Of a DNA stretch of 64,000 nt, positions 23,501 to 26,500 are shown piece after piece; position 1 is the stretch's first letter, and the number at the start of each line of letters is the position of its first letter. The notes under the pieces are model-generated. The model did no database searches. It was not told where the DNA came from and worked only from the letters and a program-made list of their open reading frames with translations. The DNA comes from Phoronis australis (taxonomy: Eukaryota; Animalia; Phoronida), in NCBI GenBank assembly GCA_002633005.1, contig NMRA01000056.1, positions 319,165 through 383,164 of the forward strand. Direction: 5' to 3'. Made by a program: the position numbers and the translations under genes.

Positions 23501-26500
23501 GCCCTCATGTATAACGACGAGTCTGTCCTGGAGAACCATCACCTCGCTGTGGCCTTCAAACTGCTTCAAGAGGAGAACTGCAATATCTTTGTCAACCTGA
23601 CTGGGAAGCAGCGGCAGACGCTGCGCAAGATGGTCATCGATATGGTACGTACACATGCACCCTGCATCGCTGCGGAGCTGTCGGGTTGTGCATTACTGTA
23701 CAAATATCGGCCAGTCTCGAGGGGGACGTCTGGTTGTATGGACTGAGGGAGAGCGATATTGCCCAAGGCCTAAGGTCCGTATAACTTGATCGGGCCTGAG
23801 GGACCAGTCATTATTTGTTTTATTACACAGCCACTGATCCTTGTTTCCTCCAATTGATTTATCTCATATTAGATTAGCTTGTTACTTTCTTTGAAATCCC
23901 AACTTCCTCTGCTCAGTTTGTTGTTAGGACTTAAGGTTTCCAAAGTATCTGATTGATCAGATCTTGAACAGCTACGTCTCACATATGGGAGATGTGAATG
24001 AAAAGTGATATTCCATGGCCAAGCTGGTGAATAGTGCGCGATATTGGAAATTAACGCACCGTGTTTCAGCTAATTGGAGGCCAATAGTACCAGTGGTCAT
24101 GTAATACTGTGCTTAACTGGTATTTTTAGGATCTTCGTAATTGTTTTAATAGGACATTGTTATTAATAGGACATTGTGCCCATTATTGCCGTTTGCTAAG
24201 TACATTTGCTTACTGGTTACAACAATTTATTAAGAGAATGCAATTTGTTGTAGTGCTCTTTTAAAGTTAGATGTTCCTAAAATTGATAAAATTGTGTGAT
24301 TGAAGTCATATTTGTGGCAACAACGTATTTGCAGTGGAAGTTCTATTCTGGGTTTTATTTGCCAGCCTGAAAACTCTTGCCTGTCCTGTGCTTTCAGACT
24401 GGCAAATGAAGTCTATGTGAATAGGTGAAAACTACAGTGCTTTCCAGAATGAATTTTAGATCTACTTTTGCACTGCATGACAAATCACCCATCGGGAGAT
24501 ATTTATTTACTGCAATAATTTTGTGACTTTGTGCCTGCCTTCTTTTCGAATCACAATAGTAACAACCCTGATAATTATAATTATAATTATTGCGATGCTC
24601 ATCTCAAAAGTTGTCTACTATTATATTGTGACTATTAGTAAGTAGCTTACTCTCTTTTTAACCATTTCATGGTATCATGGTTGTCTCAACTCTGTAACAC
24701 TGTGTTGCATGCCTGATGCAGTGAGTGACTCGATATTCACTATTGGGTGGTGTTCGTGAAGAAAGCGCCCTCTTTTTAAAGTAACACTTCGCCCTGTTTA
24801 ACTGCCAAAAATCAAATTTGGTATAATAGTTTCATAAAATTGGTCTCATGATATTCATAACTCTTATAGGATTCTAGTTCCCTTACCAACAGGAACAACA
24901 ATACCTTCAACGACTAGAGTCAGAGTTTACTGGGGTTAGTGAACCCTGAAATTGTGAATGACTTCTGTATGAACTGTCTGTGACCGGAGTTGCAGGCCCA
25001 TTTCCCAGCAATTCAATGCGAATATTTGTGGTTATGATTTTAAATCCCGAAGCACCTTGGTTAAGAAATCAACATTGATATAGCTAAAGAGCATTAATGT
25101 GCACCCTTTTACATCTGAGTAGATGAAGAGGGGAAGGCAGTGGATATCAGCTTTCATGTGCTAGGGGACACACGTGACCATCTTAATTCCTGAACTGTAT
25201 AGGTTACACTAGCGCCACCTTGTGAGTCTCAAGTCACCCATTCACATGAATAATCCTGGGTAGAGTTCAGTAAAGCTGGTGTGTCTCTTGAAAAGCAAGA
25301 TCTTGCGAGATTCCACGATGAGAGCACGGGATTTTGGCTGGATGTTTCTTGCCGTGAGACAGTTAGCGAACTCGACTCTGTTTTAACTACAGTAACAGCC
25401 TGAGGTGTCCAGTACTCTGGTTTATTATTTCTTATTCAACATTCAGCTAGGCCAAACTTTTCACCAAAACAAAGTTGAATGTTCTATGCTGAAAACACGT
25501 GATCAGTGTTGAAACTGCCAGGCAAAACCTAGTAGTAAGTTATGGTGGAATTGGTCCTGTTTCCAAATTCTAATCTCCAGTTAGCTAGATGCCTGAGCCG
25601 AGTACTGTAAGCGCCTCTGGTGGCAGGTACATCATGTGCCTGTATTGTCTGTCTCTCTTTGACGTTCTGTCTCTTTGTCACTAACAGGTCCTGGCCACCG
25701 ACATGTCTAAACACATGAGCTTGCTGGCCGATCTCAAAACGATGGTTGAGACGAAAAAGGTGGCTGGCTCCGGTGTTCTACTTCTCGATAACTACACAGA
25801 TCGAATTCAGGTACATCCTCTTTCCGATCTACATATATGTGTGTGTATGTGTGTCAGTGTCCATCCACCCGTCGGTAAGAATGACTTGGATGGCCAGACC
25901 AGGAAAATATTTCTAGATAGCCCGTCTATAACTGGGCCAAAATTCTGGACGGGTAAATAGGGTTTAGTTGATATCTGGATCCAGTTTTTAACTGTGTTCA
26001 ATTGAAGCGATCTATTTGTATCCTGGTCTGGTCATTTCACGTACATCAGTGACCGGTGGTTAACCTCTTGGGTTGTTTCTGCATTGACGCTGTACCGTAG
26101 GTGTTGTCGACCGACATGAACAGACACATGCGTCATCTAGCGGAGTTCAAGACATTCGTCGAGTCGAGAAAGGTGGCCGGCGTGCAGGATTTATGCCGTA
26201 GTCTTACCACCACTCAAGATCGACAAGTGGTCAGTTTGTTAAGGTCTAGAACGAAGTGTAATGCATTAAGCTTGGTTATTTATGTAGCTGTTGGACAGTT
26301 CACAGAGGGAGAGGATTTTAATATTTCTTCGAATGACATGCTTGTTGTTACATTACAAATGTTTTGGAGCCACGTTTAAGCTTTTCAATTTGACGGCCAT
26401 TAAGGTGACTGACCACGAAGTTTTATCTGCTTTCTGTTTATTCAAAAATTTCATTGAAGATCACCAGACATTTGCTTTATTTTCTATTACGGTTTTAATA

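Follow-up and report, generated by a model that had tools for sequence, protein, structure and literature searches.

A diverged tandem duplicate of a catalytic exon in the PDE4 gene of Phoronis australis

Does the PDE4 gene of the phoronid Phoronis australis carry a second, selected version of one of its catalytic exons, and is that version used? The DNA analysed here, referred to as the window, comprises 64,000 nucleotides of contig NMRA01000056.1 (assembly GCA_002633005.1, positions 319,165 to 383,164 of the forward strand), numbered from its first letter. A sequence-only reading of this stretch had proposed a pair of mutually exclusive exons, A and B, whose alternation would alter kinase docking within the catalytic core. 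Judged from its sequence, exon B is a real tandem duplicate of catalytic exon A inside the PDE4 catalytic domain, and it most likely serves as a minor alternative exon, restricted to certain tissues, within an old pair.

The exon pair within the PDE4 gene

The gene encodes a UCR2 region and a PDE catalytic domain closest to that of PDE4, as expected of a PDE4/dunce-type enzyme. No UCR1 exons were found within the 64-kb window. The features of the locus are as follows.

21726-21890 and 22903-23002 (span 21726..23002), plus strand: two earlier catalytic exons, placed by reads, boundaries and homology.
23490..23644, plus strand: upstream constitutive catalytic exon, ending ...KMVIDM with a phase 0 donor, placed by read and contig joints and by its boundaries.
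25688..25810, plus strand: exon A, the canonical copy, 41 amino acids, 123 nt, identified by translation, junction reads, one contig and a PDB match.
25811..26100, plus strand: the A-B intron, 290 nt, GT..AG, above the <50-nt steric rule given in PMC5740500.
26101..26229, plus strand: exon B, a diverged tandem duplicate, 43 amino acids, 129 nt, phase 0-0, stop-free, likely a minor alternative exon; the assignment draws on translation, selection tests and counterparts in other animals.
26915..27097, plus strand: downstream constitutive catalytic exon, starting VLQNMVHC..., placed by junction reads and homologue search.
29803..30200 (3' end approximate), plus strand: last catalytic and C-terminal exon, with an ERK-type site (P-x-S-P) and a degenerate site of FQF type.

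As had been described from the letters alone, exon B begins 290 nt after A in an open frame with its own splice sites; both exons are preceded by AG, followed by GT and in phase 0-0, and both translations match exactly. The counterpart of exon A in the full-length PDB chains of human PDE4D is residues 268-308, and A is identical to human PDE4B at 39 of 41 residues. We take T271, D272 and M273 of PDE4D to be pocket-lining. The best matches of the downstream exon, at 87-89%, include molluscs, a nemertean and unnamed sequences. Exons A and B share 17 of 27 residues over their first 27 gap-free codons. Within the window, exon B was recovered by tblastn with the PDE4 of other species at E values of 2e-7 to 7e-6, which excludes chance resemblance. 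The donor of exon B matches the consensus at 6 of 9 positions, compared with 7 of 9 for five used donors; 3 nt before it, after 26226, there is a further candidate donor that is weaker (5 of 9 matches). The pyrimidine content of its acceptor (0.64) equals that of one used acceptor. A chance match or an assembly duplicate was rejected as an account of exon B: synonymous sites approach saturation, and nothing is shared between the flanks of the two exons.

Elsewhere in the window, minus-strand exons at about 44000-63100 with fibronectin-like and phosphatase-like frames presumably belong to a receptor-type protein tyrosine phosphatase gene, whose 3' end faces that of PDE4. At 44639-45816 and 47065-48235 there are two pairs of tandem copies of 588 bp, with identities of 99.2% and 98.6% and a lone N interrupting each pair. 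They are likely assembly overlap artefacts; one of these pairs repeats an exon of the phosphatase gene. Broken reverse-transcriptase-like frames, which we assume to be of LINE type, occur at about 34170-36180 on the minus strand and 37146-37430 on the plus strand, adjoining a gap at 33515-34007.

The strong DNA divergence between A and B that had been remarked upon is real, but it is mostly synonymous (pS 0.65, pN 0.21). Over the 27 gap-free codons, dS is 1.49 and dN is 0.25, giving a dN/dS of about 0.17. Of 4000 neutral simulations started from A with an equal number of residue changes (10), all 9 invariant positions survived in 11 and the changes were equally conservative in 168, whereas none combined the two; simulations started from the B exon of a related locus (L001) gave 38, 92 and none, respectively. 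The earlier suggestion of purifying selection is thereby borne out for most of the history of exon B: these comparisons indicate that the exon has been shaped by such selection over that period, its present-day action being left aside. Since 3025 of the 4000 neutral simulations remained stop-free over the 27 codons, the results bear on past selection and not on selection today. Among the B exons of four related loci (L001, L003, L005 and L006), 0-1 nonsynonymous differences were counted against 2-12 synonymous ones (dN up to 0.010, dS 0.08-0.68), a constraint equal to that on A in the same loci and a mark of strong purifying selection. Window B is far more diverged than these copies.

Counterparts in other animals and the origin of exon B

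A query with the downstream exon alone returned a PDE4 protein of the nemertean Tubulanus polymorphus in which A is followed by a B-like copy, together with three full open reading frames (ORFs) carrying a B-like copy only. The 13 RefSeq isoforms of this Tubulanus gene (XP_074643584-XP_074643599) comprise two with A only (isoforms X2 and X13), one with B only (isoform X3) and ten with both. A profile built from five B-like peptides gave 5818 hits, the best 120 of which included a gene model of the annelid Dimorphilus gyrociliatus with A and then a diverged B, as well as three further ORFs with B only. Six continuous, intron-free annelid-like ORFs thus carry B alone (P0038, P0039, P0090, P0224, P0228 and P0229), with the caveat that such ORFs may derive from paralogues that have lost A. 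Among 80 metagenome loci kept from 358, A and B occur in that order in four (L001, L003, L006 and L058), each a separate exon of 123 nt bounded by AG/GT. In another four, a B-type exon is preceded by no more than 119-443 nt of sequence, and 72 have a single A-type copy. Related genomes, to which the sequence-only reading had pointed for orthologous exons, therefore hold homologous A-then-B pairs, in the nemertean Tubulanus and in annelid-like genomes (Dimorphilus, L001, L003, L006 and L058).

The pair is not universal. Among 83 listed cluster members, drawn from a listing that covers three of the clusters in part, 8 lack the segment, and all 62 that contain it and are not Tubulanus isoforms (from molluscs and unnamed sources) have a single A. 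Two bivalve-like loci (L017, L024) and one annelid-like locus (L020) have no B in the intron after A. No close orthologue of window exon B was found at E up to 10 (3 candidates); a search of representatives with window B yielded five hits, three of them doubled-A PDE4 proteins and two unrelated repetitive proteins, and likewise no close orthologue. Those three doubled PDE4 proteins (P0003, P0004 and P0205), vertebrate or unnamed, repeat an identical segment and were discounted as artefacts of assembly or gene modelling.

Several splice-site differences were observed among these loci. The exon A donor reads GTGGG in L001:3129, L003:1078, L006:1746 and L058:4124, and GTACAT in the window; GTGGG is kept even though synonymous sites between L058 and the rest are saturated, and is possibly a retained weak donor. 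Three B-type exons (L062:298, L063:243, L074:567) have GC, not GT, at the donor. The bivalve-like loci (L017:4001, L024:4001) have no intron before exon A, which would rule out such exon switching there.

In the catalytic-domain tree, L001, L003, L006, L058, L005, L074 and the six B-only ORFs join Dimorphilus with support of 99/95. Two A-only members, L020 and P0120, also fall inside this annelid-like clade (99/95), and P0038 groups with the A+B loci (83/87). The window PDE4 sits weakly beside molluscs (81/78) in one tree and in a polytomy outside the annelid-like clade in the other; the named rows of these trees include no brachiopod, phoronid or invertebrate deuterostome. On these matches and trees the sequence is probably that of a lophotrochozoan invertebrate. 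P0063 and P0068 were left out of the second tree, P0063 having a very long branch and having earlier paired with P0068.

The simpler reading, and probably the correct one, is that a single old duplication gave rise to every B copy. Three lineages have the same exon in the same order and phase, and window B scores 52.3 bits on a B profile against 45.8 on an A profile. It shares H12 with 18 of 25 B copies (1 of 24 A), R23 with 19 of 25 (0 of 24 A) and N7 with 10 of 25 (0 of 24 A), counts that are inflated, and drawn from a B set biased to H12, because the profile and pattern that retrieved most of the B-like peptides included window B and H12, one of the two patterns requiring H12; the Tubulanus B, P0038, P0039 and P0090 came from the independent downstream-exon query. 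One B-type peptide, P0262, has R11, S22, R23 and A26 in common with window B, and a single clade of all 26 B rows is not rejected (p-AU 0.89). Hagfish (Myxine glutinosa) PDE4 models P0105 and P0110 have H at position 12 in an otherwise vertebrate-type exon, so that H12 is not confined to B copies and may be gained or retained elsewhere.

That window B instead arose by its own duplication of A, independently of the annelid and nemertean copies, is a possibility that we regard as doubtful, and it concerns origin only. It would account for the A-type residues V25 and A26 in window B and for the exon trees (41 columns), which leave window B unplaced and apart from other B copies, its nearest rows being A-type in the careful tree. 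Holding all B copies together costs that tree little (lnL about -1064.3 against -1063.4 for the free tree, about equal), and the window PDE4 is itself unplaced in the catalytic-domain tree. With 1.2-1.4 changes per column, where the median is 0.03-0.05, the branch leading to window B is very long, and the 3' third of this exon no longer looks like other B copies.

Exon use and splicing control

RNA reads were mapped on 21600-30200 from about 18-19% of each of three raw runs of one study, all under the same species label, together with one contig set. With a threshold of at least 3 reads, 15 joints were listed and 4 weaker joints fell below it. The joint from the upstream exon to A was carried by 11, 5 and 12 reads in the three runs (28 in total), and that from A to the downstream exon by 20, 6 and 10 (36 in total); a 2115-nt contig also uses exon A. 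Exon A is the dominant spliced form in the reads examined. The exon B junctions that the sequence-only reading had put forward, 23644>26101 and 26229>26915, did not appear: no exon B joint is present among the 15 listed from these portions of about 19%, with 4 weaker joints unlisted. Nor do the 15 include an A>B joint, in reads where B itself is unseen. Depth over exon B was zero in both bins of run X4, beside 22 A-junction reads, about 1.0 in both bins of run X2, and 1.0 and 0 in run X3, with intron bins ranging from 0 to 3. A few exon B reads may thus exist in runs X2 or X3; B is absent from the X4 reads mapped. Short interspersed repeats in the PDE4 introns (23072-23244, 26762-26810 and 29526-29650) collect many unrelated RNA reads on both strands.

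Our preferred reading, which we hold at a probability of roughly 0.6, is that exon B likely replaces A in a minority of transcripts or in unsampled tissues, presenting the same pocket-side residues with a rebuilt surface loop. Considerably less probable is that B, formerly a working alternative exon, is now silent or decaying in this organism, its open frame and splice sites being leftovers. The RNA is what such decay would produce, with no listed B joint and zero depth in X4, as are the very long branch and the aberrant 3' third. Lineages do lose B, as the 62 A-only cluster members and the three loci without B after A attest, and an open frame persisted in about three-quarters of the neutral simulations. 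Against this, the changes in codons 1-27 are conservative and spare all 9 invariant positions, a combination seen in none of the 4000 simulations; the length change is of whole codons; the acceptor equals a used one in pyrimidine content and the donor falls only one match below used donors; and the RNA sample amounts to about 19% of three runs from one study.

The protein context was modelled with AlphaFold on the B-only and A+B proteins of a relative, Tubulanus. In the B-only model the PDE4 domain is normal, matching PDE4D with a TM of 0.94 by target length and an rmsd of 2.3; block pLDDT across the exon is 68-89. Its B exon (residues 549-589) starts inside helix 535-551 and ends inside helix 584-599, so that both exon ends lie within secondary-structure elements. 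The A+B model retains the fold (pTM 0.54 vs 0.52), with pLDDT <50 at residues 518-563, where A ends and B begins; folding does not, therefore, rule out co-inclusion.

The pair has the layout of mutually exclusive exons, being neighbouring, homologous, similar in length, in the same frame and bounded by valid splice sites. The strict mutual exclusion originally suggested may not hold, since 10 of the 13 Tubulanus RefSeq isoforms join A and B. The A-B introns of the window and the four A+B loci measure 290, 531, 630, 730 and 1107 nt, all above 50 nt, all exons of the pair are multiples of 3, and the window donors are ordinary GT types; enforcement by steric clash, frame shift or U12 incompatibility is therefore inapplicable. 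Only part of the known clusters rely on steric clash (<50 nt), frame shift or U2/U12 mismatch, the mechanisms listed in PMC5740500, and docking-selector RNA pairing has been found in only some. No shared intron element or convincing inverted repeat was found in the window and the four loci, considering the five longest pairs per region. By exclusion, we infer that splicing regulators would choose between A and B.

Lower still in our estimation stands the proposal that exon B is an optional cassette after A, with the protein drawing on A for the first part of the segment and on B for the last, and one exon's worth of residues looped out at the surface. A and B are in frame with one another (123+129 nt), the ten Tubulanus isoforms and the Dimorphilus model join both, the A+B model keeps its fold around a low-confidence segment, and no enforcement mechanism was found. 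However, every A+B sequence seen is a gene model, and exons of this kind can be strung together in models. The best 120 hits, in which a double copy would score highest, included no unnamed transcript-like A+B ORF, against six with B alone; 36 Phoronis reads join A to the downstream exon with nothing in between; and B retains N-terminal pocket-side residues that an A+B protein would not need.

Docking surface and relation to known systems

We take the KIM hairpin to map to residues of exon A. In PDE4, as set out in the reviews PMC12699188 and PMC7291338, the KIM lies on a beta-hairpin that binds ERK2 and works with an FQF site. The window gene has P-x-S-P, and its FQF-type site is degenerate, reading LFEI. 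The contention that exon B rebuilds the docking hairpin holds for the window, where the hydrophobic motif is lost, but not for B copies at large: most others keep a basic pair followed by a hydrophobic-x-hydrophobic pattern, which window B alone has lost. An ERK-docking switch through exon choice is plausible for this organism only, and the claim is weakened further by the degenerate downstream site of the same gene. Another PDE4 docking motif, N-terminal in position, is carried on an alternative exon (PMC4670726).

Under our preferred reading of B as a minor alternative exon, tandem duplication of exon A would have given rise to B, and Phoronis would use it in some transcripts. The B-only domain is predicted to retain the PDE4 fold, with the altered loop changing partner docking and MAPK docking likely lost only in the B of this organism. 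A broader scenario, which we offer tentatively and consider unlikely to hold in full, places the duplication before the annelid/nemertean/phoronid split, with splicing switching between two catalytic domains of which the B form offers the other docking surface; molluscs would have lost B, some annelid paralogues would have become B-only, and window B would have no MAPK docking.

The author of the sequence-only reading knew of no prior description of such a pair. Our search of the open full-text literature likewise turned up no account of a PDE4 catalytic exon in duplicate, and in the records examined the feature exists only as automatic gene models; those that include A+B are likely chimeras in need of a check. 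If our reading is true, a selected second core exon in several invertebrate lineages would constitute a natural variant pair, which would probe the role of the helix and loop after the TDM segment in activity, inhibitor binding and kinase docking.

Among the closest known systems is the PDE4 of Tubulanus polymorphus, where a second copy of the same exon follows A and carries H12. At 54% identity to window B, this copy differs in retaining the hydrophobic-x-hydrophobic pattern, and the pair is known from automatic models, for which no paper was found and most of which include both exons. The annelid model DgyrCDS1047 (CAD5111770.1) of Dimorphilus also has A followed by a strongly diverged B, as in the window; it differs in being modelled as A+B in one protein and in a B that has diverged another way, without H12. 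The homologous mutually exclusive exons of PMC5740500 are likewise adjacent, homologous, similar in length, in the same frame and with ends inside helices. Junction reads are the criterion for such exons, and none is among the joints listed for exon B of the window; the PDE4D cluster shown in the supplement of that paper is a 50-nt phase 2-1 exon without PDB mapping, and is not exon A/B. Vertebrate PDE4A-D belong to the same enzyme family, and their variants, according to PMC2929239, differ by alternative N-termini and share the catalytic-domain exons, whereas the variation in the window PDE4 lies inside the catalytic domain.
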